Assembly: GCA_016125045.1 (NCBI GenBank)
Contig: WGML01000009.1
Coordinates: forward strand, 117,206 to 181,205
Direction: 5' to 3'
DNA: 64,000 bases
Source: a bacterium
GTDB lineage: Bacteria > Pseudomonadota > Alphaproteobacteria > Caulobacterales > Hyphomonadaceae
This document shows positions 6,454 to 41,852 of the stretch, one piece after another. The position numbers and the translations under genes were made by a program. Numbering within the stretch: position 1 is the first letter of the stretch; each line of letters starts with the position of its first letter. Below the pieces are notes generated by a model. The model was not told the origin of the DNA. It saw only the letters and a list, made by a program, of their open reading frames with translations, and made no database searches.

Positions 6454-6824
6454 AAGGCCGCAAGGAGCACCGGCCCGATCCCGTGCGATCTCCGCTCACG
6501 GTATGGGTGCACAGAGGGGTTGATGCGCCCGCCTACCGCGCCACGATCTTCGATCCGCCGCTCCCCGGCCCTGCCCCTTCGCGCGGCTGGCCGATCTGGA
6601 TCGTCGAACACCGCGGACGCGAACTGGTGTTCGCCTCACCAGAGGAGATTCGCCACGCCATCGATGTTCTTGGACGCCGCGTGATGCCCCGTGCGCGCGA
6701 TCTTGCCGGCCCTCACCTCCCGCGCAACCGACACTGGCTGTCCCGGCTGCACTCGAGCTGGAAGTCCTGGAAGGTTCGCCAACGCCTCACGAAAACGCTC
6801 GCGCGGCTCCTGACCGAAGGCTGA
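6450..6824 (+). CDS. Hypothetical protein
   Basis: ATGA start/stop overlap with the MFS gene. Coding-like third-position GC. No recognised domain. Confidence 0.45.
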   Translation: MKGRKEHRPDPVRSPLTVWVHRGVDAPAYRATIFDPPLPGPAPSRGWPIWIVEHRGRELVFASPEEIRHAIDVLGRRVMPRARDLAGPHLPRNRHWLSRLHSSWKSWKVRQRLTKTLARLLTEG

Positions 6825-6858
6825 TCAACCGCACGGACCAATGGGTTGCGGCGACCGC

Positions 6859-7953: not shown

Positions 7954-8272
7954 GGCGTGCTCCCTCTTTGGTCGCGGACAGGCGCGCGTCTTGTCCGGCG
8001 CGCCTCGCCGCATGGAATCTGCGCCAACATGCGGTAAAACGTCTCTGCGATGCAATCGGACAAACCGGACCGGCGGAGCTTGCGTACGTTTTTTGCATTC
8101 CGAAGCCGTATATTCGCCCTCCGGATCGCTTGCCGGCCGTCCATGCGACAGCGTGCATGACCGGGGGGTGAGGAGTGGGCGTCAGGAACGGTTTCGGCGC
8201 GGGTTTGAGTGATGTTTGGGCGATGGCTTCATCACGGGGCCGCCGCCGGGGACCAGACGAAGGGACGACAAG

Positions 8273-9967
8273 ATGGACGGATCGATGGCGGCTGGCCCGG
8301 TGCTCTCTGATCTGCGCGGCCTGATGCGCGAAGGCGCGACGGCGGCGGAGACCTATTTCCTCGCGGTCCGCAAGGCCGTCGCCGGCAAGGTCGCGCCCGC
8401 CGGCAAGGTCGACCGCACGCTCATCGACGTCGAACAACGCGCCACCCACGGCCTCGCCTGGGTGCTGACCTATGTCGAAACGCTGAAAGAGGTCGCCAAC
8501 TGGGCGGACCGTCTCGCCGCAGCCGGCAAGTGGGGCGAAACGGAACAGCTGCTCTCCCAGATCCTCTTCGGCGAATACCTGAACCAGCTCGCCGGCGGCC
8601 TGCCGATGACCCAGGTCGAGATCGTGCGCCCGCTCGACATGACGGCGGAAGCATCGATCACCGCGCCGTTGCTCGCGCCCGCCGTGACGACCCTCATGAC
8701 TGGCGGAAACACCCCCGCGGCCCGGCTGCGGGCGGCGGAACTGATCCGCGAAGCGCAGGGCCGGGCGACGGTCGAGAACACCGGGCTCGACGAAACCTAT
8801 GAAATGATCCGCGACCAGTTCCGCCGCTTCGGCGAGGAGCGCGTCGTTCCTTACGCTCATGACTGGCATCTGAAGGATGAACTCATCCCCGACGCCGTCG
8901 TCAACGAAATGGGCGAGATGGGTGTCTTCGGCCTCACCATCCCTGAAGCCTATGGCGGGCTCGGCATGGGCAAGACCGCGATGTGCGTCGTCTCGGAGGA
9001 GCTGTCGCGCGCCTATATCGGCGTCGGCTCGCTCGGCACGCGCTCCGAGATCGCCGCCGAACTCGTCCTCGTCGGCGGAACCGAGGCGCAGAAGCAGGCA
9101 TGGCTGCCCGGCATCGCTTCCGGAGCCATCCTGCCCACCGCCGTTTTCACCGAACCCAACACCGGATCGGACCTCGGTTCGCTCCGCACCCGCGCCGAGC
9201 GCGCGCCGGACGGCGGCTGGACCATCACCGGGAACAAGACCTGGATCACCCACGCGGCCCGCACCGACATGATGACCGTGCTCGCCCGCTCGGTCGCCGG
9301 CACCGACAATTTCTCCGGCCTGTCGATGTTCCTGTGCAGGAAACCGCGTGGGACGGATGAGGCTCCCTTCCCCGCCGAGGGAATGACCGGCGGCGAGATC
9401 GAGGTGCTCGGCTATCGCGGCATGAAGGAATACGAGATTGCCTTCGACGGCTTCCGCGCGCCGGCCGACGCCCTGCTCGGCGAGGTCGAGGGACAGGGCT
9501 TCCGCCACCTGATGGCGACGTTCGAGGGCGCCCGCATCCAGACCGCCGCACGCGCCATCGGGGTCGCGCAGAACGCGCTTGAACTCGGGCTCAAATATGC
9601 GCTGGAGCGCAGCCAGTTCGGCCGCCCGATCTTTGAATTCCCGCGCGTGTCCGACAAGCTCGTGATGATGGCCGCCGAACTCATCGGCGTGCGCCAGCTC
9701 ACCTATTACTCCGCGCGCCAGAAGGATGAGGGCAAGCGCTGCGATCTTGAGGCCGGCCTCGCCAAGATGCTCGCGGCGCGCGTCGCCTGGGGCGCGGCGG
9801 ACAATGCGCTGCAGATCCACGGCGGCAATGGCTTCGCGCTCGAATATCCGATCAGCCGGGTGCTGTGCGATGCGCGCATCCTCAACATCTTCGAGGGCGC
9901 GGGCGAGGTGCAGGCCATGGTCATCGCCCGCCGCACGCTGGACGAATTCCTCGCCGGGAAGAACTGA
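8273..9967 (+). CDS. Acyl-CoA dehydrogenase with an N-terminal extension
   Basis: The ACAD core motifs are all present: TEPNTGSDLGSLRTRAE, WITHA, and IHGGNGFALEYPISRVLCDARILNIFEGAGEVQ. Alternative start at 8216. Confidence 0.9.
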   Translation: MDGSMAAGPVLSDLRGLMREGATAAETYFLAVRKAVAGKVAPAGKVDRTLIDVEQRATHGLAWVLTYVETLKEVANWADRLAAAGKWGETEQLLSQILFGEYLNQLAGGLPMTQVEIVRPLDMTAEASITAPLLAPAVTTLMTGGNTPAARLRAAELIREAQGRATVENTGLDETYEMIRDQFRRFGEERVVPYAHDWHLKDELIPDAVVNEMGEMGVFGLTIPEAYGGLGMGKTAMCVVSEELSRAYIGVGSLGTRSEIAAELVLVGGTEAQKQAWLPGIASGAILPTAVFTEPNTGSDLGSLRTRAERAPDGGWTITGNKTWITHAARTDMMTVLARSVAGTDNFSGLSMFLCRKPRGTDEAPFPAEGMTGGEIEVLGYRGMKEYEIAFDGFRAPADALLGEVEGQGFRHLMATFEGARIQTAARAIGVAQNALELGLKYALERSQFGRPIFEFPRVSDKLVMMAAELIGVRQLTYYSARQKDEGKRCDLEAGLAKMLAARVAWGAADNALQIHGGNGFALEYPISRVLCDARILNIFEGAGEVQAMVIARRTLDEFLAGKN

Positions 9968-10796: not shown

Positions 10797-12035
10797 ATGC
10801 CCGAAGCCTGGATCATCGACGCCTGCCGCACCCCGCGCGGCATCGGCAAGGTCGGCAAGGGATCGCTCGCCGGCATCCATCCGCAACAGCTCGCGGCGAC
10901 CGTGCTGAAGGCCATCGCCGACCGCAACGAACTGAAGACCGCGGAGGTCGACGACATCATCTGGGGCACCTCCACCCAGAAGGGCAAGCAGGGCGCGGAC
11001 CTCGGACGCATGGCCGCGCTCGACGCCGGCTATGACGTGCGCGCCAGCGGCGTGACGCTCGACCGGTTCTGCGGCTCCGGCATCACCACCGTGAACATGG
11101 CCGCAGCGCAGATCATGTCCGGCATGGAGGATCTCGTGATCGCCGGCGGCACCGAGATGATGAGCTACACCGCCTCCATCGCGAGCCCGACCGAGCCGCC
11201 GATGATCGACGCCGGCAATCTGCGTCTGCGCGCCCGCCACCCGCAATCGCACCAGGGCGTGTGCGCGGACGCCATCGCGACGCTGGAGGGCATTTCCCGG
11301 GAGGCGGCGGACGATCTCGCCCTCGTCAGCCAGCAGCGCGCAGACGCGGCGATCCGCGGCGGCCATTTCGACCGCAGCCTCGTTGCGGTCCACCACGAGG
11401 ACGGATCGGTGGCGCTCGACCGCGAGGAATTCCCGCGTCCGCAGACCACGCGCGAAGGCCTCGCGGGCCTCAAGGCGTCGTTCGCGCAGATGGCGGACAT
11501 TCCGCTCGATGAGAAGGGCACGACCTATGGCGGCCTCATCCGTCAGGTCTACCCGGAGCTTGAGATCAACCACATCCACCATGCGGGGAACTCCTCCGGT
11601 GTGGTTGACGGGGCGGCGGCCGTCCTGCTCGCCTCGCCGGACTATGCGCGCAAGAACGGGCTGAAGCCGCGGGCGCGCATCGTCGCGACGGCCAATGTCG
11701 GCGACAGCCCGACGCTGATGCTGAATGCACCCGTGCCCGCCGCCCGCAAGGTGCTGGAAAAGGCCGGCCTCACCCTCGACGACATCGACCTGTTCGAGAT
11801 CAACGAGGCGTTCGCCGTGGTCGCCGAGAAGTTCATCCGCGACCTGAAACTCGACCGCGACAAGGTGAATGTGAACGGCGGAGCGATGGCGCTCGGCCAC
11901 CCGATCGGGGCGACGGGCTCGATCCTCATCGGCACGATCCTCGACGAGCTTGAGCGGCGCGACCTGAAGCGCGGCCTCGTCACGATGTGCGCGGCCGGCG
12001 GCATGGCCCCCGCGATCATTATCGAACGGGTGTGA
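10797..12035 (+). CDS. Acetyl-CoA C-acyltransferase (thiolase)
   Basis: RFCGSG active-site Cys context, NEAFA, and the C-terminal GGAMALGHPIGATG ... CAAGGMA motif. Confidence 0.92.
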   Translation: MPEAWIIDACRTPRGIGKVGKGSLAGIHPQQLAATVLKAIADRNELKTAEVDDIIWGTSTQKGKQGADLGRMAALDAGYDVRASGVTLDRFCGSGITTVNMAAAQIMSGMEDLVIAGGTEMMSYTASIASPTEPPMIDAGNLRLRARHPQSHQGVCADAIATLEGISREAADDLALVSQQRADAAIRGGHFDRSLVAVHHEDGSVALDREEFPRPQTTREGLAGLKASFAQMADIPLDEKGTTYGGLIRQVYPELEINHIHHAGNSSGVVDGAAAVLLASPDYARKNGLKPRARIVATANVGDSPTLMLNAPVPAARKVLEKAGLTLDDIDLFEINEAFAVVAEKFIRDLKLDRDKVNVNGGAMALGHPIGATGSILIGTILDELERRDLKRGLVTMCAAGGMAPAIIIERV

Positions 12036-12059
12036 GGGAACGAAGGGGCCCCGCGCCAG

Positions 12060-13118
12060 TTACTTCGCCGCGGCGGCTTTCGCCTCCTGGACGCGGGCGC
12101 CGCCGAGAATGCCCGGCATAGCGTAATTGCCCTCATGGCAGGCGTATTCATAAACCGGGCCCTCGGTCTTGTAGAAGCTGAGCTCGGCCTTCCACGGCTT
12201 GGAATAGTAATTCGGGTCCTCCACCTCGAACTGGTAGAAGATTTCATCCGCGCTGATGCGGGTGAAGCGCTCTTTCATCTTGCCCTCCGGCGAGAGCGGG
12301 ATCGACGAGGCGCTCGCCTGCTCGGGACGGACATTCTTGGTCTGGACGACGAGCGTGTCGCCCTCCCACCAGCCGACGCTGTCGCCAAGCCAGCGCGCCA
12401 TGACGCCCGGACGGTGTTTCTGCGTCGCCTCCGCCTCGCTCTTGAACAGCGGAACCACGCGCGCGTCGTGGTTCATCTCAACCAGCACCATGAGGTGATC
12501 GGGCGTCAGCACGAACTGGTAGGTGTTGTTGTACAGCACGCTCAGCATGCCCGGCCCGCCGGTGTTGCCGAAGCCGATCAGGCAGCGCTCCGGCAGGGGC
12601 GGCGCCTCCGGGCCTTCATTGCCGCCGACGCCGGTGACGTAGCGGATGCCGCCCGCCGTGCGGGCGCGCTGAACGGCGGCCGGGTCGCGCCATGGGATCG
12701 CGCCGCTCGGCGGATCGACGATGTAGGAGGTGCGGATCTCGCCCTTCACCTTGGCGAGCTGCTGGCCGGGATCGACCCAGAACGCGTCGTAGCCCTTGAG
12801 GCCGAAATCCTGGCTGCCCTTCGGCGGAGCCGGCGCATTCGGATCGGAGAAGGTGGGGTCGCCGGCGTCTTCCCGGCTGACGCCGGCGATCGACATGTTC
12901 TCCGCGATCTTCTGCGCCTCCTCGGGCGTGACGACCAGCTTGTCCACACCAGCCGGGCGGCTGAGGCCGGTGAGCGATCGGTTGGTCCAGATTCCGTTGA
13001 GATCGGGCTTGCCGGACGGCGTCACCGGCAGGTCCTCGGCGAACGCTGCGGGCGAAACGGCCAGCATCAGGGCGGCGACGGCCGAGCTGACCATGGGTGC
13101 GAAGCGATGCGCGGACAT
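12060..13118 (-). CDS. Secreted protein of unknown function, paralogue 2 of 4
   Basis: The ATG at 13118 follows an AAGGAGAG Shine-Dalgarno site. Signal peptide ...AALMLAVSPAAFA-E. Carries the ERCLIGFGNTGGPGM...YEYACHEGNYAMPGILGGARVQE blocks. Confidence 0.85.
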   Translation of the reverse strand: MSAHRFAPMVSSAVAALMLAVSPAAFAEDLPVTPSGKPDLNGIWTNRSLTGLSRPAGVDKLVVTPEEAQKIAENMSIAGVSREDAGDPTFSDPNAPAPPKGSQDFGLKGYDAFWVDPGQQLAKVKGEIRTSYIVDPPSGAIPWRDPAAVQRARTAGGIRYVTGVGGNEGPEAPPLPERCLIGFGNTGGPGMLSVLYNNTYQFVLTPDHLMVLVEMNHDARVVPLFKSEAEATQKHRPGVMARWLGDSVGWWEGDTLVVQTKNVRPEQASASSIPLSPEGKMKERFTRISADEIFYQFEVEDPNYYSKPWKAELSFYKTEGPVYEYACHEGNYAMPGILGGARVQEAKAAAAK

Positions 13119-29976: not shown

Positions 29977-29987
29977 CCCGCGCCACG

Positions 29988-30350
29988 CTCTTGTCCTCCA
30001 CCCATCGTCAGATGGGGGGAGGACAAGAGCGCATGCGAGGTCGGAGGGGGGGCCGCCCCACCCCGCCGCCACATGTCATCCCGGAAGCGGCGTGAGCCGC
30101 TATCCGGGACCCAGCCTCAAGAACCGCAAAGCGCCTTCATCCCCCCCTCCGGTCCTGCGGACCACCTCCCCCCGTTCCACGGGTGGAGGACAAGACCCCG
30201 CCGCCTCCGTCCCCCCCCTTCACGGGGGGTGAGACGCGGCGCCGAAGGCGCAAAACGCGAAGAGCGTTTCGAGCGGCGAACGCCCGCAGCGACAGCGGAG
30301 GGCCGGGTGCCGAGCGAAAGCGAGGCCGGAGGGGGCGCCCCCAAAACCCG
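29988..30350. repeat. Intergenic mosaic repeat cluster A
   Basis: The cluster contains three elements. First, the hairpin gctcttgtcctcc...ggaggacaagagc (29988-30030, 13-bp perfect stem) directly after the dehydrogenase stop. Second, family-1 element TGTCATCCCGG...CCGGGACCCAG at 30074-30114. Third, the family-2 element at 30145-30209. The region is convergent, with gene ends at 29976 and 30358. Confidence 0.9.
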
Positions 30351-30357
30351 CCCGCGT

Positions 30358-31545
30358 CTACTCCGCGCCGATCTTCAAAAGCGGCGTATTGGCCGCCCGC
30401 AGCGCCGGGAAGAAGCCGCCGATCAGTCCGAGCACCAGCGCGAGGACCACACCGGAAACCACCTGCGCCGGACCGATCGCAAAGTCGAACACGACCTGCG
30501 TGAAGCCGCCGCCAAGGGTGGAAGCAGTAATGCCGTTGAAGATGAGATAGGCCGCGATCACACCGAGCAGTCCGCCCGCAAGCGACAGCAGCAGCGACTC
30601 CGTCAGCGCGCCGACAAAGGCCGGGAAGCCGCCGAAACCGATCGCCCGCAGCGTGGCCAGCTCCTTGGTGCGCGCCTCCACCGCCGCATACATCGTATTG
30701 AGCGCGCCCGCGAGCGCGCCGAGCCCGAGCGTGATCGCTAGCGCCCAGCCGAAATACACGATGGCTTCCAGCGATCGCGCCTCGGACGCGAAATGCTCCT
30801 TCTCGGTCTTCACCTCGATGCGCAGCCGCGGATCGGCCGCCACGAAGGCCTTGATCGCCTCCATCTGGCCGGGGTCCGTCAGGCGTGCGCGAACCGCGGC
30901 GACGGTCGGTCCGCGATTGAACAGCGTCTGCACGACGGGCAGATCCGCCCAGAGCTCGCTGTCGAACACCGTGCCCGGCACCTCGAACACGCCGACGACC
31001 TTCCACTTGTCGGTGCCGAACTGCATCTCGGCGCCAAGGTCAAAGCCCTGGAACTCCCGCACCACGCCCGCGCCGACGATCATCTCGTTGGTGCCGGGGT
31101 CGTACATCCGCCCCTCCGTGATCCGGAAGCCGGTGCGCATCCCCGGCGCGTTGGCCGTGACGCCGCGCAGCGACACGTTGGCCTCGCCCCCTCCCGCCCG
31201 GCGCACCGCGCCCACCGCGACATAACTCTCCGGCGACACGATCGGCCGGCCGGAGGCGTCGCGCGCGATGCCGGGGGCTTCCTCGAGGATCCGGACCGCT
31301 TCGCCCGGCATGGTGGAGTTGAGCTCCGAGCCCGAGGTTCCCGTGCCCAGGAACATGGCCACATCCTCCGACCCGGTGCCGGCGACCGTCTTGGCGAATC
31401 CGTTGCCCATCGCGAGGAAGGCGAGCAGCGTTGCAACCACCAGCGCGACCGAAACGATGGTCGTGAGCGAGGCCCAGAAGCGGCTCGGCAGCCCCGACAC
31501 CGTCATCGCGACGACCGCGCCAATCTGCTGAAACAGTGCCGACAT
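30358..31545 (-). CDS. ABC transporter permease (FtsX/MacB-type)
   Basis: An N-terminal TM segment, a large periplasmic domain, then a C-terminal 3-TM FtsX-like region (...ATLRAIGFGGFPAF...). Confidence 0.85.
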   Translation of the reverse strand: MSALFQQIGAVVAMTVSGLPSRFWASLTTIVSVALVVATLLAFLAMGNGFAKTVAGTGSEDVAMFLGTGTSGSELNSTMPGEAVRILEEAPGIARDASGRPIVSPESYVAVGAVRRAGGGEANVSLRGVTANAPGMRTGFRITEGRMYDPGTNEMIVGAGVVREFQGFDLGAEMQFGTDKWKVVGVFEVPGTVFDSELWADLPVVQTLFNRGPTVAAVRARLTDPGQMEAIKAFVAADPRLRIEVKTEKEHFASEARSLEAIVYFGWALAITLGLGALAGALNTMYAAVEARTKELATLRAIGFGGFPAFVGALTESLLLSLAGGLLGVIAAYLIFNGITASTLGGGFTQVVFDFAIGPAQVVSGVVLALVLGLIGGFFPALRAANTPLLKIGAE

Positions 31546-31549
31546 CGCG

Positions 31550-32713
31550 TCAGATCCTTCTGAAGGCGGTGATCACGTTCACCCGCATCGCATTCCAGGC
31601 CGGGATCGCGCCGGTGATCAGCCCGAGCGCCACCATGAGGCCAACCGCCGTCGCAACGATCTCCGGCGTGATCTTCAGCGAGCCGAAGAACACAAGGAAC
31701 TGGCTGCCCACGGTCTGGCCGAGTGTGACGATCCCGAACGCCGCGGCGAGCCCGATCAGCCCGCCGATAAGGGCGAGCATCACCGTTTCTCCGATCACGA
31801 TCCGCGCAATGCGGGGCGAGGTGAAGCCGAGCGTCTTCATCACCGCGATTTCGCCCGTGCGCTCCCGGATCGCGCCCGCCATCGCATTGCCGACGATCAG
31901 GAGGATGGTGACGAACGCCGCGCCCGTCACGCCGAGGATGATCAGGCCGAGATTGCCCTGCTGGTCGATGAAGGCCGCGTTGAACGCCTCCTCGGTCACC
32001 GTCTCGGTCTCGGCGCGCGAGTTCTGGAACAGCGCATCCACCTCGCGGATCACCTGATCGTTGAGGTCCGCGCTCGCGGTCTTGATATGGATGTTTCCGA
32101 TCGTGTCCTGCGCGAAGGCGCGCGCCTCGTCGAAATACTCATATGGGATGTACACCGAATTGGTCGGCGTATCGCCATCGCCCTCGAAGATCGCGCGCAC
32201 CACCACCGGCCAGGTGTTGCCGCCGTCCTGCCGCCGCCAGATGTTCGACGAGACCGGAATTTGCTGGCCCAGCGTCCAGCCATACTGGTCGGCGATCTGC
32301 CGGCCCACCAGGATGCTGTCGCGCCCGTCGACGAAGGCCTGCCGCTGCGCGGGATCGATGTTCAGCTCGCTGAAGATGCGGGTGTAGCTGTCGGGCTCGA
32401 CCGCGAAGGCGAGCAGGAAATTGCGCTCTTCCTGGAAGTATCCGCCGAACCACATCGAATAGCTGACGTCCGTCACGCCCTCGACCTGCGCCACGCGGTT
32501 CACATAGGCGATGGGAAGGCTTTCGGTGAAGTTGATCCGGTTAGAGGATACGAGCCGGTTCTGCGAGGACGGGCCGGTCGCATTTTCGAGCGACGACTGG
32601 AAGGCCGCGAGCACCGCATAGATCAGGAACGCGATGAACACCGCAAACAGCAGCAGGATCGTGCGCAGCTTCTTGCGGGCGAGGCCCGCCAGCATCAGTC
32701 CGAAGTCGGTCAT
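31550..32713 (-). CDS. ABC transporter permease (FtsX/MacB-type), second copy
   Basis: Same architecture as the first permease (...IAVMKTLGFTSPRIARIV...). ATGA-type overlap with the ATPase gene. Confidence 0.85.
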   Translation of the reverse strand: MTDFGLMLAGLARKKLRTILLLFAVFIAFLIYAVLAAFQSSLENATGPSSQNRLVSSNRINFTESLPIAYVNRVAQVEGVTDVSYSMWFGGYFQEERNFLLAFAVEPDSYTRIFSELNIDPAQRQAFVDGRDSILVGRQIADQYGWTLGQQIPVSSNIWRRQDGGNTWPVVVRAIFEGDGDTPTNSVYIPYEYFDEARAFAQDTIGNIHIKTASADLNDQVIREVDALFQNSRAETETVTEEAFNAAFIDQQGNLGLIILGVTGAAFVTILLIVGNAMAGAIRERTGEIAVMKTLGFTSPRIARIVIGETVMLALIGGLIGLAAAFGIVTLGQTVGSQFLVFFGSLKITPEIVATAVGLMVALGLITGAIPAWNAMRVNVITAFRRI

Positions 32714-33399
32714 GTCAGCCGCTCCTCGAACTCACCCTTGTCGAGATGCAGTTCGCGCTTGGCGTATTTCGCCGCCGCGGGGTCGTGCGTCACCATCACG
32801 ATCGTCTTGCCGAGATCGCGGTTGAGCAATTGCAGCATTTCAAGGATCTCGGTCGCGGTCGTGCGGTCGAGGTCCCCCGTCGGTTCGTCGGCGAGCAGGA
32901 GTTTCGGGTCGGCGACAATCGCCCGCGCGATCGCCACGCGCTGTTGCTGACCGCCGGAAAGCTCCTTCGGACGGTGGCCCGAACGGTCGCCGAGACCGAC
33001 GATCTCAAGCGCGGTCTTCACCCGCTCCTTGCGGTCGCGCGGCGACAGTTTTGTCAGCAGCAGCGGCAGCTCGACATTGCGGGTCGCCGTCATGGTCGGC
33101 ATCAGATTGTAGAACTGGAAGATGAAGCCGACATTCGCCGCGCGCCATGCCGACAACTGGCTTTCGCTCAGCTTCTCGATGGGTGACCCGGCGAAATTGA
33201 TCGATCCGCCCGTGGGCCGGTCGAGGCCGCCAAGCATGTTGAGAAGCGTCGTCTTGCCGGAGCCCGACGGCCCCATCACCGCAACGAAATCGCCGGCCGG
33301 AATCGTCAGGTTGAGATCGTCGAAGATCGACAGCGTCTCGTCCCCGCGCTTGTAGCGTTTCTGCACGCCCCTCAGTTCGATCAGCGCTTCGCCGGTCAT
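32710..33399 (-). CDS. ABC transporter ATP-binding protein (MacB/LolD-like)
   Basis: Walker A GPSGSGKTT, signature LSGGQQQRVAIARA, Walker B LLLADEPTGDLD. Confidence 0.93.
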   Translation of the reverse strand: MTGEALIELRGVQKRYKRGDETLSIFDDLNLTIPAGDFVAVMGPSGSGKTTLLNMLGGLDRPTGGSINFAGSPIEKLSESQLSAWRAANVGFIFQFYNLMPTMTATRNVELPLLLTKLSPRDRKERVKTALEIVGLGDRSGHRPKELSGGQQQRVAIARAIVADPKLLLADEPTGDLDRTTATEILEMLQLLNRDLGKTIVMVTHDPAAAKYAKRELHLDKGEFEERLT

Positions 33400-33424
33400 G
33401 ATGCCTCGCCCTTGCCTGCCCTGA

Positions 33425-33476
33425 AGACCCCGCAAGGGTCTAACCGAAGCCCGCCCGTCTGCACAATGGCGGGCGG
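33425..33476 (-). terminator. Two hairpins downstream of the TIR gene
   Basis: ccgcccg-N12-cgggcgg (33451-33476) and agaccc-cgcaa-gggtct (33425-33441). They lie between the TIR stop (33509) and the ATPase start (33399). Confidence 0.45.
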
Positions 33477-33508
33477 AAAGCTCTCTACGCAGCTACGGGA
33501 GGTCCGGC

Positions 33509-34639
33509 TCAGCGGCCGAGCGCTGCCACCAGCCGCGCGCGCTGCCCGGCGGTCGCGAGCGCGCCGATCTTCACCTTCGCGTCCCACACGCTTGCAAGCC
33601 CCCAGAGCTGCGCCAGCCGCTCGGCGTCCTCATAGGCGTAGCCCGCGTCGACGAAATCGCACTGCGTCCCGGATTGCCGTGCGAAGCGAAGGATTCCGGG
33701 GATGTTCGCGGCGAGGCCGCTCATGATCTTGCGCCCGACGAGCGCCTTCGTCTCGCCGATGTCCATGTTCCAGTAGGCGCCGATCAGTTTCGCGTCGCAA
33801 TAGGCGTAGCCGGACGCAAAGAACGTCCCATACTCGTCTCCCGGCACGATCACGGGTTGCTGGGCCGGCGCCGCCGGAAGGTCTGGCGCGGCGTCCGCGT
33901 CCGCGATCTCCACTGCCTCCCCCGTCGCTTCGCCCGTCGCCTCGACCGCACCGGCGTCGGCGGCGTCCCCGGCGTCGGCGACCTCGACCGGTGCGCCGTC
34001 GGCGCCGGGATCAAGGCCCGCATCGTCGCCGCCGCCCCCGAACATGCCGGACTGCCAGGCGAAATATCCCCCGCCGCCAAGCAGCGCGATCGCCGCGACG
34101 GCGCCGACGAGCGGGATCACCGGGGACGACTTCGCGGGTTCGGGCCTGCGCTGATAGGTCGACCTCGGCGCGGAGGTGGACGCCGCCGCCGGCCCGGTTC
34201 CGATCATGGCGCTGAGCGCCGGGAGGGGCTTTGGCGGCCCGCCGGGCGCGCGTCCCACGAAATGCTGCACCGCCCCCAGGACATTCACCCATTCGGCGTC
34301 ATGGGTGTCGCCCGTCCAGCCGATCAGGCGCGCCGCCTCAAGCTGACGGAAGCCGTAGGGGATCGGCACATCGTCGATCAGCACCGGCAGCAGCACGTTG
34401 CGCTGCTTGCCTTCATCGGCCTCATCGAGAACCCATTGCGCCTGCGACGACTTCTCCGACCAGAGCACCATCACGCATTTGGCGGTGGCGAGCGTTTCGC
34501 CGATCACTTCGCGATAGCTGCGGCCGGGGGGAATCCGGTGGTCCCACCACACCTCATAGCCTGCATCCGCGAGCGCCCGCGCGATGGGTTCGACCCGGTG
34601 AACGTCCTCTTTCTTGTAGCTGATGAAGATATCGGTCAT
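33509..34639 (-). CDS. TIR domain / single TM / C-terminal extracytoplasmic domain protein
   Basis: The N-terminus looks like a TIR_2 domain: DIFISYKKEDVHRVEPIARALADAGYEVWWDHRIPPGRSYREVIGETLATAKCVMVLWSEKSSQAQWVLDEADEG...LLPVLID. It is followed by a TM helix (VIPLVGAVAAIALLGGGGYFAW), an acidic D/A/G linker, and a ~110-aa domain with an internal GYAY.DA...W...AK..IG duplication. Confidence 0.85.
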   Translation of the reverse strand: MTDIFISYKKEDVHRVEPIARALADAGYEVWWDHRIPPGRSYREVIGETLATAKCVMVLWSEKSSQAQWVLDEADEGKQRNVLLPVLIDDVPIPYGFRQLEAARLIGWTGDTHDAEWVNVLGAVQHFVGRAPGGPPKPLPALSAMIGTGPAAASTSAPRSTYQRRPEPAKSSPVIPLVGAVAAIALLGGGGYFAWQSGMFGGGGDDAGLDPGADGAPVEVADAGDAADAGAVEATGEATGEAVEIADADAAPDLPAAPAQQPVIVPGDEYGTFFASGYAYCDAKLIGAYWNMDIGETKALVGRKIMSGLAANIPGILRFARQSGTQCDFVDAGYAYEDAERLAQLWGLASVWDAKVKIGALATAGQRARLVAALGR

Positions 34640-34715
34640 GCGCCGCCCCTTGCCTCCGCCGCCCGGAGAGCCAAGACCCTATCCGCCATGACCGACCTTC
34701 ACAACCTGGGCGCCG

Positions 34716-34898
34716 CCCTCCGGTCCTTCGGACCACCTCCCCCCGTTCCACGGGTGGAGGACAAGACCCCGCCGCCTCCGATCTACACCTGTATCCCCTG
34801 GGTCCCGGGTCTCGCTGACGCTCGCCCGGGATGACACCCTTCCATGCGCGACCAGATTGTCATCCCGGAATTTGCGTCAGCAAATGTCCGGGACCCAG
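34716..34898. repeat. Intergenic mosaic repeat cluster B
   Basis: The family-2 element at 34716-34780 matches cluster A at 64/65 positions. Family-1 elements lie at 34798-34836 (inverted orientation) and 34858-34898. Confidence 0.9.
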
Positions 34899-34900
34899 CC

Positions 34901-35884
34901 TCACCCGCCGCAGCACTCAACCAGCATCGCCTCGAACACGTCCGCCGCCTCGACGATCTCACCCGCCGTCATCCCGGCCGGCAGGATGCGCACCTCGAAC
35001 GTGTCCTTCGCCGGATCGCCAATCGCCAGGTTCGCGAGGTTGAAGTCGCAATACTTGCCCACCCCCGCCTGCCTCAGCGCCCGCGCCGCCTCCGGCCACG
35101 CCAGCCGGCGAAACCCCTCGTCGCGGGCGAGCGCCGTGACGGGGTCGGGCCACGGCCCGAGGCGGACGCAATGCGGATTCGTCGCGAAGCGGCGTTTCAG
35201 CGCCTCCGCCCGCTCGCCGAACAGATCGATCATCCGCGCGACGACCGGCGCCGACTTCAGCCGGGCGGCGTCGAAATGCACATGCACCGCCCCTTCGACC
35301 GGGGCGAAACACTCCTCCGCCGCGGCATCTGCCAGCAGGGCCGCGAGCACCCTCTCATGATCCCGCTCGATCGGCGCGGTCACGATCTCGCACGGCCGCT
35401 CGCGTTCGCCCGGCAACGGGGCGGCGATGGCGATGCTCGCCCCCCGGTCGTCGGAGACTTTGCGCAGGCCGCTCTCATGCACCTGCACCGCCGTGCCGAA
35501 CGCGCGCGCCAGCGGCTCCAGCACCGTCTCCAGCGGATCGTCCGCGCTGCACAGCCGCGCCGCGAGGCGCATCAGCCGGCCGTCATCCCCGACGATGCGA
35601 TACCAGCCGTGCACCGGCGATGCGGCCTTGTCGAAATCCCGCTGCAGGGTGAGGTCATCGACGAACGCCGCCACCGGGCGCCCCGCAGCGTCGCTCACCT
35701 CAAAGCCGAGGGTGAGGTTCTCGAACACGGGCCGGCCGGCGACCTCGCTCGGTTCCGACTGCTGATGGAACACCCGCCGCACCGCGCCTCCCGTTCGGGC
35801 GGCGGTCCGGGCCGCAAGATCCGCCCGCGTCCGGCCGGGCCGGCAGGCCAGCTCGATTTCAACCCCGATCGTCCAGTCCGGCAT
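34901..35884 (-). CDS. Amidoligase (Amidoligase_2 / glutamine-synthetase-like carboxylate-amine ligase fold)
   Basis: The ATG at 35884 gives MPDWTIGVEIELAC..., then CEIVTAPI, AVHVHFD and FEVRILPAG. These match the family's G.E.E / E.V(S/T)P / HVH / (I/F)E.R motifs as I remember them. Confidence 0.75.
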   Translation of the reverse strand: MPDWTIGVEIELACRPGRTRADLAARTAARTGGAVRRVFHQQSEPSEVAGRPVFENLTLGFEVSDAAGRPVAAFVDDLTLQRDFDKAASPVHGWYRIVGDDGRLMRLAARLCSADDPLETVLEPLARAFGTAVQVHESGLRKVSDDRGASIAIAAPLPGERERPCEIVTAPIERDHERVLAALLADAAAEECFAPVEGAVHVHFDAARLKSAPVVARMIDLFGERAEALKRRFATNPHCVRLGPWPDPVTALARDEGFRRLAWPEAARALRQAGVGKYCDFNLANLAIGDPAKDTFEVRILPAGMTAGEIVEAADVFEAMLVECCGG

Positions 35885-35924
35885 CGCCGCTGCTCCCGCC
35901 AGACCGCCCGCGCGCCTTGAGCGC

Positions 35925-36944
35925 CTAGCCCTCGGTGCGGTCGAACGTGACCTTCGCGGCCATCTGCGGCAGCACGCGCGGATCGCGTTCCTTGAACCCC
36001 ACGCGGACCTGGATGGTCGCCCGGTCGCGGTTCGCGGTCGGAATGATCGCAATCACCTCGGCGGGGATGTTCCAGTCCGGATAGGCGTCGAGCACGATGG
36101 TTGCGTTCTGTCCCGGGCGCACGTCCGAAATCTGGCCCTCATTCACGTCCACCTCGACCTCGAGGCTCGCCATGTCGACCAGCGTCGCAACGCCCGTCCG
36201 GGTAAACTCGCCGCCGCCGCCGGCCGGCGAGAGGATTTCCCCCGCCTGCGCGTTCTTGGCGATGATGACCCCGGCGAACGGCGCCCGAACCTTGTGGCGG
36301 TCGACGAAGTCGGCCTGCCGCTCAACCGCGAATTCCGCCACCCGCACATCGGCCCTGGCCGCGTCGTAGCGCGCCTTCAGCGACTCGATGGTCGCCACCG
36401 CCTGGTCCAGCGCCGCACGCGACACCGCCTCGCTCGCCATCAGCCGCTCGGCGCGCTGGCGCTGGTTTTCCGCTTCCACCATCTGCGCTTCCAGAGCCTG
36501 CACATTCGCCTTCGCCGACTGAACCTGCGCCTGCCGGAGCTGCAGGTCATAGCGCGCCGGCTCGTCATCCAGCTGGGCGAGGAGCTGGCCCTTCTCGACG
36601 ATGGCGCCCTCCTCGAACATCACGTCCGTCAGCCTGCCGGTGATGTCGACCGACACCGTCGCCGCCCGGCGCGCCACCACATAGCCCGACGCGACAAGCC
36701 CGCCGCGCGGCCGTGGCGCGGCGGCGACCCCCGCGACCGTCGATCCCGCGGCGCCCGCCGCAGGGTCCGCGGCGGCGACCGCCGGAGCCGGGGCGGGCGC
36801 CGGACGCATGAACATCATCCACCCCGCCATCGCGAGCATGGCGACCACCGCAACGCCGGCGATCAGCGGCCAGGGGCCTGCTCCGCCGCCGGACGGCGCC
36901 GACCGATCGATCGACAACGACCGCAGCTTTTCGGCAGTATTCAT
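35925..36944 (-). CDS. Periplasmic adaptor subunit (HlyD/MacA-type membrane fusion protein)
   Basis: An N-terminal TM anchor, a coiled-coil hairpin (LQLRQAQVQSAKANVQALEAQMVEAENQ...) and a beta-barrel C-terminus. Confidence 0.88.
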   Translation of the reverse strand: MNTAEKLRSLSIDRSAPSGGGAGPWPLIAGVAVVAMLAMAGWMMFMRPAPAPAPAVAAADPAAGAAGSTVAGVAAAPRPRGGLVASGYVVARRAATVSVDITGRLTDVMFEEGAIVEKGQLLAQLDDEPARYDLQLRQAQVQSAKANVQALEAQMVEAENQRQRAERLMASEAVSRAALDQAVATIESLKARYDAARADVRVAEFAVERQADFVDRHKVRAPFAGVIIAKNAQAGEILSPAGGGGEFTRTGVATLVDMASLEVEVDVNEGQISDVRPGQNATIVLDAYPDWNIPAEVIAIIPTANRDRATIQVRVGFKERDPRVLPQMAAKVTFDRTEG

Positions 36945-37108
36945 TCCTCAACTCTCACGATCAGTTGTCCCCGGCCAGAAATCCGCGGCCAGATGTCCGC
37001 GACCAGACGCCCCGCCGGCGGAGCCGCGCTCTCGCGGCACCCTCTTACAATCGCCCCGCCCCGGCAAGCTTGATCGCGGTTGCGGCGAAGCGCCCCGGCC
37101 ACGCTCGT

Positions 37109-37879
37109 CTACGCGGATGAGCCCGCCGCTGGATCAATCCCGGCCGGCAGCCAGCTCGGCTTCGCGGTCTTGCCCCCGAGCCAGTCGAAATATTCGGCAT
37201 AGGAGCCATAGGCGAGCCGCGGCTCGCGCCTTTCCGCCCGGGCGAGCTTCTGTTCATCGATGGCCTCCTCCGTCCAGTCGGTCGGCGGCGGCATTTCATC
37301 TCTCTCGAACCACCAGACATTGATGTGCCGCGTCGTCCATCTCGGTCCGGACGGACCCGGGTCTTGCGAGCCGATCGGCCAGACATAGCCGAGCAGCGTC
37401 TCGAGACGCCGTCGCAGCTCGTCGAGCCAGTTGATCCCGTCGTCTTCGTGTTGCGGCGGAGCCATTGCCTTGCCTCCGCCCTGCAACCTGTCCCCGACCC
37501 GAAGCATCCGCTCGGCGAGGCGCAGGGCGGTCTCGGCGCTCCGCATCTCGCCTTGCTCGGTCAGCGCCACGGCGATCGCCGACAGCTGCTCGGCCTGCGT
37601 CCGCATCGCCTTTCCGTCCGCGACATCGGTGAGGTTCAGCGGCGCCGTGTTGCGCCGCCCGGCAAGCGCGGGGTTCAGGCCCGCTGCGATCGCGGCGGCT
37701 GTCTCTTGATCGAGGTCCTTGCGCCGCCATCCACCCGCCTGCGCCCATTGCGCCAGCGTCGAGCCCGGCACGCCGAGCCGCGCCGCGACCTCCGCGCGCG
37801 CCGCGCCCGCCCGCACCAGCCGCTCGGCCTCGGCCCGAAGCTCCCGCCGCGCTTCCTCAGATCGGTAGCCAAATCCCAT
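37109..37879 (-). CDS. Hypothetical protein with an N-terminal HTH-like segment
   Basis: The ATG at 37879 gives MGFGYRSEEARRELRAEAERLVRAGAARAEVAARLGVPGSTLAQWAQAGGWRRK... I do not recognise the Trp-rich C-terminal domain. Confidence 0.55.
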   Translation of the reverse strand: MGFGYRSEEARRELRAEAERLVRAGAARAEVAARLGVPGSTLAQWAQAGGWRRKDLDQETAAAIAAGLNPALAGRRNTAPLNLTDVADGKAMRTQAEQLSAIAVALTEQGEMRSAETALRLAERMLRVGDRLQGGGKAMAPPQHEDDGINWLDELRRRLETLLGYVWPIGSQDPGPSGPRWTTRHINVWWFERDEMPPPTDWTEEAIDEQKLARAERREPRLAYGSYAEYFDWLGGKTAKPSWLPAGIDPAAGSSA

Positions 37880-37935
37880 GGCCGGAAGTCTAAGGCGCCC
37901 CGGCCGCGAGGGGGACAAGTCATCGCGCCCCCTCC

Positions 37936-38240
37936 TGTCATCCCGGAACCGCCGAAGGCGGTATCCGGGACCCAGCGTCACCTGCCCCCAAAACGCCTGC
38001 ACGCCCCCGATCCAGCACCCCCTGGGTCCCGGGTCTCGCTGGCGCTCGCCCGGGATGACACCCTTCCATGCACGATCAGATTGTCATCCCGGAAGCGGCG
38101 TGAGCCGCTATCCGGGACCCAGCCTCAAGAACCGCAATGCGCCACCCCCCCCTCCGGTCCTTCGGACCACCTCCCCCGTGAACGGGGGAGGATAAGAACC
38201 AACCCCGCCCCAGCTGTCCTCCCCCGTTCACGGGCCAGGT
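37936..38240. repeat. Intergenic mosaic repeat cluster C
   Basis: Family-1 elements lie at 37936-37975, 38022-38060 (inverted) and 38082-38122. The family-2 element is at 38150-38211, with a partial copy at about 38214-38236. 38019-38094 matches cluster B at 73/76 positions. The first 56 nt from 38082 are identical to those from 30074. Confidence 0.9.
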
Positions 38241-38281
38241 GCTGAGGGCCGCAGGCCCGAGGCGGAGGGGGTGGACATCCC

Positions 38282-40468
38282 CTAAATCCCCAGCTCCGCC
38301 TCGCGCAGCCGTTTCACCTCGTCGCGCAGGCGCGCGGCCTCCTCGAATTCGAGGTTCGCGGCCGCCTCCCGCATCTTCTTCTCAAGGTCGCCGATCACCG
38401 CCTGCAGATTGTGGCCCGGGCCGCCGACGCCATACTCGTCCCCCTCCTCGGCGAGCACGAAGCGCGCATCCGACTTGCCGGCCCCTCTGCCCCCGCCCGA
38501 TCCGCCGCGCCCGCGGCCGGTCTTCGGCGCCGACTGGACGCCCTCCAGCACATCCTTCACGCCCGAGATCACCGTCACCGGAACGAGCCCGTTCGCCTCA
38601 TTGTGCGCGATCTGCTTGGCGCGCCGCCGCTCGGTTTCCGCCATCGCCCGCGCCATCGAGCCGGTGACGCTGTCCGCATAGAGCACCACGCGCGCCTCCG
38701 AATTGCGCGCCGCCCGGCCGATCGTCTGAACGAGCGAGGTCTCCGACCGCAGAAACCCTTCCTTGTCCGCGTCGAGAATGCCCACGAACGCGCATTCCGG
38801 GATGTCGAGACCCTCGCGCAGGAGGTTGATCCCCACGAGCACGTCGAACTTGCCGAGCCGGAGGTCGCGGATGATCTCGATGCGCTCGATCGTGTCGATG
38901 TCGGAATGCATGTAGCGCACGCGCACGCCCTGCTCGTGGAAGTGCTCGGTGAGCTGTTCGGCCATCTTCTTCGTCAGCGTCGTCACGAGCGAACGGAAGC
39001 CCTTGGCCGCCGTCGCCTTCACCTCCGCGAGGCAGTCGTCCACCTGGTTTGCGCCGTCGCGAAAAACCGGGCGCACCTCGACCGGCGGGTCGATCAGGTT
39101 CGTCGGGCGGATGATCTGTTCGGTGAACACACCGCCCGTGCGTTCGAGCTCCCACGGGCCGGGCGTCGCCGAGACGTGCACCGTCTGCGGCCGCATCGCC
39201 TCCCACTCCTCGAATTTGAGCGGCCGGTTGTCGAGGCAGCTCGGCAGGCGGAAGCCGTATTCCGAAAGGGTGTATTTGCGGCTGTAGTCGCCCTTGTACA
39301 TCGCGCCGAGCTGCGGGATCGTCTGGTGGCTCTCGTCGACGAAGACGATCGCGTTCTCCGGCAGGTATTCGAACATCGTCGGCGGCGGCTCGCCGGGTTT
39401 GCGGCCCGTGAGATAGCGCGAATAGTTCTCGATGCCGGCGCAGCTTCCGGTCGCGACGATCATTTCGAGGTCGAACTCGGTGCGCTGCTGAAGGCGCTGC
39501 GCCTCCAGGAGCTTGCCGTGCTGGGTCAGCCAGTTCACGCGCTGGCGCATCTCGTCCTTGATCAGCTCCACCGCCTGGGCGAGCGTCGGGCGCGGCGTCA
39601 CATAATGGCTGTTGGCGTACACCTTGATGCGGGGCAGCCGCTGCAGCGCCTTGCCCGACAACGGGTCGAATTCGTGGATCGCCTCCACCTCGTCGCCGAA
39701 GAACGACACCCGCCAGGCCCGGTCCTCCTGGTGGGCGGGCCAGACGTCCAGCACATCGCCCTTGATGCGGAACGTGCCGCGCCCGAAGGCGTGGTCGTTG
39801 CGCTTGTACTGGAGCGCCACGAGGTCGGCTGCGACCTCGCGCGGGGATCGGGTCTCGCCCTCGATCAGCGCGAACGTCATGGCGGAGTAGGATTCCACCG
39901 ACCCGATGCCGTAGATACACGACACCGACGCAACGATGATAACATCGTCGCGTTCAAGGATCGCCCGCGTCGCCGAGTGGCGCATCCGGTCGATCGCCTC
40001 GTTGATGGAGCTTTCCTTCTCGATATAGGTGTCCGTGCGCGGCACATAGGCTTCCGGCTGGTAGTAATCGTAATACGAAACGAAGTACTCGACACTATTA
40101 CCAGGAAAGAACGCCTTGAATTCGCCATACAATTGCGCGGCCAGCGTCTTGTTGTGGGCGAGGATCAGGGCCGGCCGCTGCACCGCCTCGATGACCTTCG
40201 CCATGGTGAACGTCTTGCCGGACCCGGTCACTCCCAGAAGAACCTGGTCCATCTCCCCGCTCTCGACGCCCTGCACGAGGTCGGCGATGGCCTGCGGCTG
40301 ATCCCCGGCGGGTTGATAGGCGGCGGCGACCTCGAAGCGGCGTCCGCCCTCGAACTTCTCCCATTCGCGAGCGGGCCTGTGGGGCGCCCAGATCGCCGGG
40401 GCCGGCGCCTCGGAGACGCCGCCGCGCGGTGCTTCTTCGGTCGTGATCGATCGCTTCGGTCTGGCCAT
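38282..40468 (-). CDS. uvrB: Excinuclease ABC subunit B
   Basis: The helicase motifs [12 protein letters not shown] and DESH are present, together with the C-terminal UVR domain ([22 protein letters not shown]). Start taken at MARPKRS. Confidence 0.95.
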
Positions 40469-40571
40469 GTCCCGAATATGGCGCAGCCCCGGATGCAACG
40501 CCACCGCGCTCTTCGCCACATTTTTGCGCCAGCGTGCGGTTATCCCCCGACGACCTTGACCGGAGTTCCGA

Positions 40572-41852
40572 ATGCCCCGCCCTCGACCAGGCCCCGCCGC
40601 CGCGCTCGCAGCCGTCGTCTCCCTGCTGCTCACCTTCGGCGCCGTCGCCCAGACCACTGCGTCAGGCTGGCGGGACGCCAGCAGATGGGAAGACGGCCGG
40701 AGCGTCGCCTGGCGGTCCGAGCCCGCACCCGCGTGCGAGGGCTCACATGTCGAACTCCAGATCACCAACCGCTCCAGCGTCGACCGCCAGGCCGCCTTGC
40801 GGTCGGCGACCTTCGCCTGCACCCGCGGCGGCTCCGACCAGTTGGCCCCCCGCGCACTTGGCTTCTCTCCCGCAGCTTCCACCCAGACCTCGGATCGCTT
40901 CTCATGCGTCTGCGCGGAGCGCGGCGGAGTGCTGGACCTCACGGATCTGGACGTGAGCTTCGCACTTCAGGGTCAAGGCGAATACACGACCGCTGAAGGG
41001 TGCCGGTACAAAGGGTCGTTCTCAAACGACAAGCGCAACGGTCCCGGAGAGTATGTTTGCCCGGATGGGACCCGGGCCGCCGGCCTGTTCGTCAACGGCG
41101 AACTGAATGGCTCCGGTGAGGAAACGCTTGCGAACGGCCAGCGCTATGTCGGTGCATTCATCAACGGTCGCAGAGAAGGGGCCGGCGTGATGACCTTCGC
41201 GGACGGATCCCGTTATGAGGGGGACTTCGTGGCCGGCAAGCGCGAGGGAACCGGGACGATGACCTACCCGGACGGCTCCAAGTATATCGGCGACTGGAAG
41301 GCGGATCGACGCTCCGGGGTCGGCACGTTTGTCGCCGCCGGCGGTGTGTGGACCTATGACGGCGACTGGGTGAACGACCAGCGCCAGGGCTCCGGCCGGC
41401 TCAGTTACGCTGATGGCTCCTACTCCTATCAAGGCACGTTCCGGCAGGACCTGCCAGAAGGACCAGGCCTCGCTCGGTTCGCGGATGGGCGGGTGTTTCG
41501 CGGCGAGTATCTCGCGGGCGTGCAATCCGGCGAGGGTGTCCTCACCTTTCCGGACGGCCGCACCATTTCCGGGTCTTTCCAGGATCACCAACCGAACGGC
41601 CGCGCCATCGATTCAGGCCCTGCCGGCGTGTTCGACGGCGAGTGGATGGACGGCGTGCTCAACGGCGCAGCGCGCGTCACCGCCAATGGAACTGTCTTTG
41701 AAGGCACGTTCGTGAACGGCAAGCGCAACGGCCGAGGAATCGAGCGGCTGGCCGACGGGTCGCAGCAGGAGTGCAATTTCGTCGACGACCAGATCAAGGG
41801 TCCTTGCAACCGCACGCTGAAGGACGGCCGCAGAATCGAGTTCCGCAGATAG
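40572..41852 (+). CDS. Secreted MORN-repeat protein
   Basis: Signal peptide ...[17 protein letters not shown] Cys-containing N-terminal domain is followed by about 12 repeats of the Y.G.f..g...G.G type ([41 protein letters not shown]...). Confidence 0.8.

Follow-up and report, generated by a model that had tools for sequence, protein, structure and literature searches.

Probable insertion of a conserved amidoligase-CTD gene pair into a MacB-type pump operon of a Hyphomonadaceae bacterium

The window analysed here is a 64,000-nt stretch of a metagenome-assembled genome (MAG) assigned to the Hyphomonadaceae. On its minus strand, between positions 30358 and 36944, four genes for a membrane exporter (the pump) are split by two further genes, one encoding an Amidoligase_2-family protein (the ligase) and one encoding a protein in which a TIR domain is joined through a transmembrane segment to an uncharacterised C-terminal domain (CTD). 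In our assessment it is likely that these two genes, which form a conserved pair, were inserted into the pump operon, and that the pump is a bystander landing site and not a dedicated exporter of a ligase product. The six open reading frames (ORFs) were confirmed, and their order, their domains as matched by Pfam and the 40-nt gap between the adaptor and ligase genes agree with an earlier, sequence-only reading of the same DNA. The genes and the parts of the TIR protein are the following.

35925 to 36944, minus strand: membrane-fusion (periplasmic adaptor) protein, 339 aa; HlyD_D23, HlyD_3 and RND_mfp matches; orthologues at 67-77% identity; putative first gene of the ancestral pump operon
34901 to 35884, minus strand: Amidoligase_2-family protein, 327 aa; PF12224 at 40.3 bits; first gene of the presumed inserted pair
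33509 to 34639, minus strand: TIR-transmembrane-CTD protein, 376 aa; TIR_2 at 71.5 bits; second gene of the presumed inserted pair
34235 to 34639, minus strand: predicted cytoplasmic TIR domain, residues 1-135; candidate catalytic glutamate E73, codon 34421-34423
34052 to 34120, minus strand: single transmembrane segment, residues ~174-196; hydrophobic stretch, N-terminus predicted inside and C-terminus outside
33512 to 33856, minus strand: predicted periplasmic CTD, residues 262-376; all-helical internal duplication with the motif Y.Y[C/W]DA..L...W......AK..IG.K
32710 to 33399, minus strand: ABC ATPase of the LolD/MacB/DevA type, 229 aa; ABC_tran; 82-86% identity to its counterparts in orthologous loci, where the ATPase gene comes directly after the adaptor gene
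31550 to 32713, minus strand: FtsX/MacB-type permease 1, 387 aa; MacB_PCD and FtsX; 69-73% identical to orthologues of the same length; 4-nt overlap with the ATPase stop
30358 to 31545, minus strand: FtsX/MacB-type permease 2, 395 aa; MacB_PCD and FtsX; 71-78% identical to orthologues

Results

The pump operon is contiguous in relatives

The closest adaptor homologues (67-77% identity) defined eight orthologous loci on seven distinct contigs (L082-L087, L093 and L094; L083 and L084 are two contigs with the same adaptor protein). In all eight the adaptor gene is directly followed by the ATPase gene, with a spacer of 32-122 nt, which bears out the earlier statement that the genes of such pumps are normally adjacent. 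The full adaptor-ATPase-FtsX-FtsX set is present in seven of the eight, with gene lengths like those of the window (adaptor 333-342 aa, ATPase 226-229 aa, FtsX 384-388 aa and second FtsX 394-396 aa). The orthologue of the first permease is split into two ORFs of 170 and 218 aa in L086 (9783-10962) and is intact in the near-identical L087, which points to a sequencing error or a frameshift. In the six loci compared, all four pump proteins of the window are 67-86% identical to their counterparts, and the ATPase and both permeases in particular are 69-86% identical to genes of the same loci. We therefore attribute the four genes to one ancestral operon. Since this operon is contiguous in the relatives, the window carries an insertion of 2,525 nt in the adaptor-ATPase spacer, and comparison of gene order identifies the ligase and TIR genes as the putative inserted pair. 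The orthologous adaptor-ATPase spacers were too divergent for their alignment to define the boundary of the insertion. The window pump genes themselves are full length.

Two other histories of this gene order were weighed. An ancestral six-gene order, with loss of the two middle genes in the relatives, would require that at least six lineages had each deleted them precisely and independently, and that the pair occurred independently at unrelated loci in 80 genomes; we consider this extremely unlikely. Alternatively, the contig might be chimeric and misjoined at the repeat mosaic at 34713-34931. The source is indeed a MAG, and an independent short-read contig breaks off close to the repeats, some 120 nt upstream from the TIR gene. 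A misjoin would, however, have to recreate by chance two conserved adjacencies, that of ligase and CTD (75 of 80 loci, see below) and that of adaptor and ATPase (8 of 8). Moreover, the repeats do not reach the adaptor-ligase or the TIR-ATPase junction, and the latter is reproduced by the independent short-read contig. An assembly artefact is accordingly rated as extremely unlikely.

The domain content of the pump proteins is clear from profile searches. The adaptor matches HlyD_D23 (70.5 bits) and HlyD_3 in Pfam and scores 135.5 bits against the NCBIfam model RND_mfp TIGR01730 (cutoff 94.9). The ATPase matches ABC_tran, its best NCBIfam match being LolD at 241.8 bits, below the cutoff of 307.75. 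Each permease matches MacB_PCD (PF12704) and FtsX (PF02687) above the cutoffs. With predicted four-transmembrane FtsX permeases that carry MacB_PCD and an HlyD/RND-type adaptor in the operon, the pump is classed from its sequence as a MacB-superfamily (type VII ABC) exporter. No NCBIfam score reached the respective cutoff for MacAB, DevBCA or LolCDE, and the pump is therefore not an equivalog of any of them. MacAB-TolC of E. coli, a type VII ABC tripartite system, likewise combines a periplasmic adaptor, a MacB/LolD-type ATPase and a four-transmembrane FtsX permease with MacB_PCD. In contrast to it, the window has separate ATPase and permease genes, two different permeases that imply a heterodimer, and no outer-membrane factor gene among the immediate neighbours; the scores were 217 and 26 bits for NF007826 (cutoff 966) and 70 for MacA (cutoff 342). 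DevBCA, the cyanobacterial exporter of heterocyst glycolipids, shares the separate adaptor, ATPase and FtsX permease genes, but it has one permease where the window has two, and the models scored 43.8 bits for DevB (cutoff 129), 19.9 for DevC (cutoff 290) and 209 for DevA (cutoff 296). LolCDE resembles the window in its single LolD-like ATPase and two paralogous FtsX/MacB_PCD permeases; it differs in that the window operon includes an adaptor, which resembles MacA or DevB, and lolCE scored 54 bits (cutoff 362), LolD having likewise stayed below its cutoff.

One orthologous contiguous pump operon, that of L094, has a gene for a TIR_2-TPR protein (549 aa, 11107-12756) about 1 kb downstream. This neighbourhood is probably a coincidence; TIR paralogues appear numerous in these genomes.

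The ligase and the CTD form a conserved pair

The ligase matches Amidoligase_2 (PF12224) at 40.3 bits (gathering cutoff 22, E 4e-10), a match that covers profile positions 2-169 of 245 only. It has 814 homologues, the best of them apart from itself at 62% identity, and PF12224 was present in 120 of the 120 homologues listed. Invariant across 20 ligase sequences are E9/E11, E160-R161-R163-E166, E197, H201/H203/D205 and E297/R299, residues which we take to correspond to the motifs ExE, HxH and ExR that bind metal and ATP in the active sites of glutamine synthetase (GS) and GCS2. The start at 35884 is consistent with the N-termini of the homologues. An AlphaFold2 (AF2) model of the ligase (pLDDT 88.8, pTM 0.87) gave 12 matches at E<=1e-3 among the predicted phage structures of BFVD, with a probability of 1.0 and TM scores of 0.35-0.45, and most of the named matches are annotated as phage amidoligases. 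The ligase is thereby like the Amidoligase_2 (PF12224) proteins of phages and plasmids, on which Iyer et al. 2009 reportedly worked, both in predicted structure (E 1e-5, TM score about 0.43) and in its conserved ExE, HxH and ExR motifs. The assignment as an amidoligase, made in the sequence-only reading, holds at the family level through the Pfam gathering score and the match to predicted phage amidoligase structures, and at that level the protein is a predicted amidoligase. No relative of solved structure was found by a sequence-profile search of the PDB, and PADLOC, NCBIfam and PHROGs gave no ligase match.

The window ligase is shorter than its homologues (327 aa versus 345-375 aa) and is without their variable C-terminal ~35-45 residues. 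The last conserved helix (MLVECCGG) forms its C-terminus, the stop codon is directly next to the first hairpin of a repeat mosaic, and no remnant of the tail was detectable beyond the repeats.

A pattern scan of one genome per GTDB species revealed 245 ligase loci, of which the best 80 (47-62% identity) were analysed. These 80 span Alphaproteobacteria, Cyanobacteria, Myxococcota, Verrucomicrobiota, Spirochaetota, Gammaproteobacteria and others. When the ORFs up to 5 kb from the ligase were clustered all against all, one widely shared family emerged, found in 75 of the 80 loci, the next real family being found in 16. With a hidden Markov model (HMM) of the CTD, this domain was located on the same strand and less than 900 nt from the ligase in 72 of the 80 loci; L003, L041 and the divergent L055 also have it adjacent to the ligase, and contig ends truncate two of the other loci. 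The window has the same pair, its CTD at 33512-33856 lying downstream of the ligase by 261 nt plus the TIR-transmembrane part. The two genes that separate the parts of the pump had been described as unrelated, which the conservation of the pair in 75 of 80 loci shows to be wrong.

The usual partner of the ligase is a small secreted protein consisting of a signal peptide and CTD copies (one in 47, two in 26 and three in 2 proteins), with no TIR domain. In 38 loci, most of them alphaproteobacterial, its gene is located downstream of the ligase gene; in 34, mainly from Cyanobacteria and other phyla, it is located upstream and often overlaps the start of the ligase. A reading of the ligase neighbours as TIR genes, based on tblastn, was rejected after domain-resolved comparison, in which the match is to the C-terminal ~110 residues and not to the TIR domain. 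In the genome that contains L003, a paralogous TIR-transmembrane protein with a different periplasmic domain has no ligase neighbour. As most partners are also devoid of TIR, the ligase tracks the CTD and not the TIR domain. According to the Pfam description, Amidoligase_2 genes usually neighbour a GATase-like peptidase or an AIG2-like cyclotransferase, whereas the conserved partner of this subfamily is the secreted CTD protein. No model for the CTD or for the ligase-CTD pair exists in PADLOC, NCBIfam or Pfam, and no paper linking an amidoligase with TIR or with the CTD was found in the literature; the pair appears to be undescribed.

Many alphaproteobacterial CTD partners (L002, L009, L014-L017, L021, L024-L027 and others) show an RR pair in the n-region of the signal peptide, as in RARRLSAALLM and FRRIAAALML. 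Because of this pair, Tat export of folded CTD partners is conceivable. The cyanobacterial partners have Sec-type, K-rich signals with no RR.

The same 80 loci bear on the proposal, also made in the sequence-only reading, that the pump exports the ligase product. In an integrated biosynthesis-export system of this kind, the MacB-type pump would export what the ligase makes and the TIR-CTD protein would act as a sensor or regulator. The six genes do lie on one strand with short spacers (40, 261 and 109 nt), no internal promoter-like site was found, and the pump genes are intact at full length. Yet an adaptor or FtsX homologue within 10 kb of the ligase was found in none of the 80 loci, even at E<=1e-3, and the ligase is missing from all eight close pump orthologue loci, the arrangement being seen in one genome only. 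The window ligase, in addition, appears to have lost its C-terminal tail to a repeat insertion. The proposal is left with no comparative support, and we consider such a system very unlikely.

The TIR-transmembrane-CTD fusion

The second gene of the pair differs from the usual CTD partner in encoding a TIR_2 domain (71.5 bits, cutoff 28) and a transmembrane segment ahead of the CTD. Full-length TIR-transmembrane-CTD proteins fall into about 20 clusters of 49-56% identity, including Hyphomonadaceae MAGs, and the fusion is limited to a Hyphomonadaceae-like clade. Among these proteins the TIR domain is strongly conserved. Within a WVLDE motif, E73 does not vary among 18 homologues, and when aligned with AbTIR, PdTIR and TcpB it falls on the Glu of their W..yELD motif, which we take to be the catalytic residue of those proteins. 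The domain would hence keep its catalytic glutamate, and NADase activity is predicted. Because basic residues precede the transmembrane segment and an acidic linker follows it, the positive-inside rule predicts a cytoplasmic TIR domain and a periplasmic CTD. The predicted outside position of the CTD is consistent with the secreted CTD proteins found elsewhere. In paralogues the same TIR-transmembrane scaffold carries other periplasmic domains, which suggests a family of receptor-like membrane TIR proteins.

Among such paralogues (P0146, P0165 and P0187), the conserved scaffold is joined to no fewer than three further, unrelated periplasmic modules. These include a repeated CYWLSNDAS...QCFAQDSCDGG motif and a ...MRIxLxExxVYLYFPDWGEF... 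domain.

The AF2 model of the CTD, which has very high confidence (pLDDT 96.2), shows seven helices and an internal duplication, and the consensus motif listed above occurs twice. No Pfam match was obtained for the CTD, also when five diverse CTD proteins and ten long CTD-containing proteins were included, nor was there any NCBIfam match, and a Foldseek comparison of the fold with the PDB gave none. The domain was found in 596 proteins at E<=1e-3 (HMMER, 1.84 billion cluster representatives); among the matches listed, most CTD proteins are 130-640 aa long with one to several copies, and the fusions examined were uninformative.

With AbTIR, PdTIR, TcpB and Thoeris ThsB the window protein shares the TIR domain, the candidate catalytic Glu being aligned with that of the first three. 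It differs from the known TIR NADases and defence proteins in being membrane-anchored with an uncharacterised periplasmic domain. Neither Thoeris nor another catalogued TIR defence system was recognised, there being no ThsA-like effector and no system-level PADLOC match. The TIR domain alone gave weak PADLOC and NCBIfam matches far below the cutoffs (PDC-S66, SAVED-TIR, retron-TIR and Thoeris ThcB4).

The fused pair occurs in different genomic contexts

In four relatives a ligase gene (345-366 aa) is followed after 49-67 nt, through a repeat-free spacer, by the TIR-CTD gene, each time in a different context. In L089, on the same contig as L003 (Hyphomonadaceae MAG GCA_041398345.1), the pair at 5514-8770 lies between ybaB and recR, with spacers of 28 and 75 nt. 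It interrupts the widely conserved dnaX-ybaB-recR cluster and represents a second co-oriented landing inside an operon. The pair lies between a lysozyme-like gene and mgtE in L090 and between a DUF817 gene and folE in L091, and it adjoins pbpC in L092. None of the genes flanking these four pairs reappears in the other loci. Three of the four relatives have a co-oriented upstream gene, only 3-43 nt from the ligase, similar to the window. The TIR-less pair, by contrast, has housekeeping surroundings that stay the same inside a genus; in Brevundimonas, for instance, it is near lysS, queA and lexA.

About 3 kb upstream of its ligase-TIR pair, L090 (1-2888) also contains a gene for a second TIR_2 protein (383 aa), divergent beside that of a cNMP_binding-patatin protein (597 aa). 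The two look like a possible pair of a TIR signal and a phospholipase effector.

These contexts matter for the function of the cassette. It has been considered as an anti-phage or abortive-infection cassette that hops between loci, in which the CTD would sense envelope attack or a ligase-dependent cue and activate the TIR NADase; this concerns function and is compatible with the insertion scenario. Such a role would fit the retained catalytic Glu of the TIR domain, the weak matches of that domain alone to defence proteins, and the different context of the fused pair in each relative whose flanks were examined. Set against this, the ligase is without a PADLOC or PHROGs match, no known defence genes flank the pair in the window, the literature shows no amidoligase-TIR link, and the TIR-less pair, which is much more frequent, has stable housekeeping neighbourhoods within genera. 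We regard a defence function as rather unlikely.

Palindromic repeats and spacers

Counted from stop codon to ATG, the spacers of the locus are 40 nt (adaptor-ligase), 261 nt (ligase-TIR) and 109 nt (TIR-ATPase). The second and third contain the first two features below, and the other two lie outside the locus.

34713 to 34931, no strand: mosaic of palindromic repeats like repetitive extragenic palindromes (REP) and bacterial interspersed mosaic elements (BIME); module B at 34713-34780, module-A hairpins at 34803-34831 and 34858-34899; ligase-TIR spacer
33449 to 33476, minus strand: G+C-rich hairpin, 7-bp stem and 12-nt loop, then TTCGGTT; TIR-ATPase spacer; weak candidate terminator or stabiliser, read from sequence
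29986 to 30209, no strand: repeat mosaic on the downstream side of the operon, consisting of a near-perfect palindrome (29986-30031), module A (30074-30115) and module B (30142-30209)
37910 to 38240, no strand: repeat mosaic upstream of a helix-turn-helix (HTH) ORF; module-A hairpins at 37941-37970, 38027-38055 and 38082-38123, module B at 38147-38214

The repeats occur in the window only at these three mosaic sites, 0 being expected in shuffles. They are built from two modules of variable order and orientation, A being a TCCCGG...CCGGGA hairpin of ~42 nt and B measuring ~68 nt. The presence of the mosaic explains the 261-nt ligase-TIR spacer. Repeat clusters had been noted before at 34716-34898 and at both outer flanks; they are real and non-random, with the extents given here. 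They had also been taken as consistent with a secondary insertion. The insertion itself stands, as the relatives are contiguous, and the argument from the repeats falls: the mosaic at 34713-34931 overlaps the ligase stop and sits inside the insert, the other two clusters lie outside the whole locus, and as the repeats thus do not bracket the cassette they are not evidence for its route of arrival. Like enterobacterial REP/BIME mosaics, they are short imperfect palindromes in variable order and orientation at gene 3' ends and in intra-operon spacers. They differ from these in sequence and match no Rfam family, and within the window they are restricted to the three sites around the locus.

The palindrome at 29986-30031, between a pyrroloquinoline quinone (PQQ) dehydrogenase gene and the pump, has 21-nt arms of 95% complementarity and a 4-nt loop. 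An Rfam match of this palindrome to mir-4716 was dismissed as spurious.

GC3, the G+C content at third codon positions, is 0.85-0.88 in the insert and the same in the neighbouring genes, so that by this measure the insert shows no compositional anomaly. A promoter and terminator scan of 30000-38300 gave nothing above the shuffled expectation, and the hairpin at 33449-33476 was not called by the consensus terminator scan. The 87 nt after the TIR stop have a folding energy of -36 kcal/mol.

Neighbouring genes

The ORF directly upstream of the adaptor gene (37109-38002, minus strand) has a weak HTH_23 match and a match to phrog_664 'DNA binding protein'. Its 5' end overlaps the repeat mosaic at 37910-37980, and the true start is probably near 37882. 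This HTH ORF is missing from the orthologous pump loci. Further upstream, at 38282-40942 on the minus strand, the listed GTG start of a UvrB ORF adds an arginine-rich, low-complexity N-terminus of ~150 aa, the real start probably being near 40480. On the plus strand, 40572-41852 encodes a 426-aa protein of repeated YxGxxxxGxxxGxG units, which is MORN-repeat-like by eye only.

Discussion

Taken together, the comparison makes the insertion of a conserved pair into a pump operon the likely origin of the locus. The ancestral locus would have been a four-gene MacB-superfamily exporter operon, the two permeases of which presumably form a heterodimer. A promoter-less, co-oriented two-gene module would then have landed in the short adaptor-ATPase spacer, and all six genes may now be transcribed from the pump (adaptor) promoter. 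The REP/BIME-like palindromes probably arrived later, one of them removing the non-conserved C-terminal tail of the ligase, and the mosaic and the hairpin at 33449-33476 may modulate downstream expression. As to function, the cytoplasmic ligase, predicted to be an ATP-dependent carboxylate-amine ligase with a GS-like fold, may make or alter something that is bound or carried by the CTD, its product being an amide-linked ligand or modification. The fused form would be receptor-like, with the occupancy of the periplasmic CTD controlling the NAD+-consuming activity of the cytoplasmic TIR domain.

Several points weigh against this account. We infer the insertion from orthologous loci and not from an empty site in a sister strain, and no mobility gene or target-site duplication was found at the insert. 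The same tight, co-oriented packing, with spacers of 40 and 109 nt, would be expected if a functional fusion with the pump had been selected for. Co-transcription of the six genes is an inference only, and the hairpin after the TIR gene could terminate transcription. For the ligase, the chemistry is predicted only: Foldseek of the model against the PDB gave 0 matches at E<=1e-3, with TM scores below 0.2, and the hhalign comparison with E. coli YbdK was weak (2.6% probability), FEVRILP being aligned with VEVRVMD (ExR motif).

A bolder version, which we think unlikely, starts from the ligase-CTD pair as a phylum-spanning two-component module, in which the secreted CTD would carry or sense an amide-linked ligand or modification made or installed by the ligase. 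In the Hyphomonadaceae-like clade this module would have become a transmembrane TIR receptor, with the CTD as periplasmic sensor and a cytoplasmic NADase, that moves into operon spacers as a promoter-less cassette; its capture by the pump operon would then have made a working circuit of synthesis, export and sensing.

With the insertion as the preferred explanation, the split of the pump is an ordinary event, and there is no sign of a dedicated ligase-pump system. The ligase-CTD pair itself is highly conserved, with about 50% identity between Cyanobacteria and Alphaproteobacteria and adjoining genes in 75 of 80 loci, and both partners are uncharacterised, one being a divergent member of Amidoligase_2 and the other a helical domain modelled with confidence that has no counterpart in Pfam, NCBIfam or the PDB. 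The TIR-transmembrane-CTD fusion has a topology like that of Toll receptors, which is rare in bacteria, and it offers a handle on what the CTD senses. Finally, the presence of the same cassette inside two unrelated operons, the pump and dnaX-ybaB-recR, suggests an unrecognised route by which promoter-less gene pairs move.

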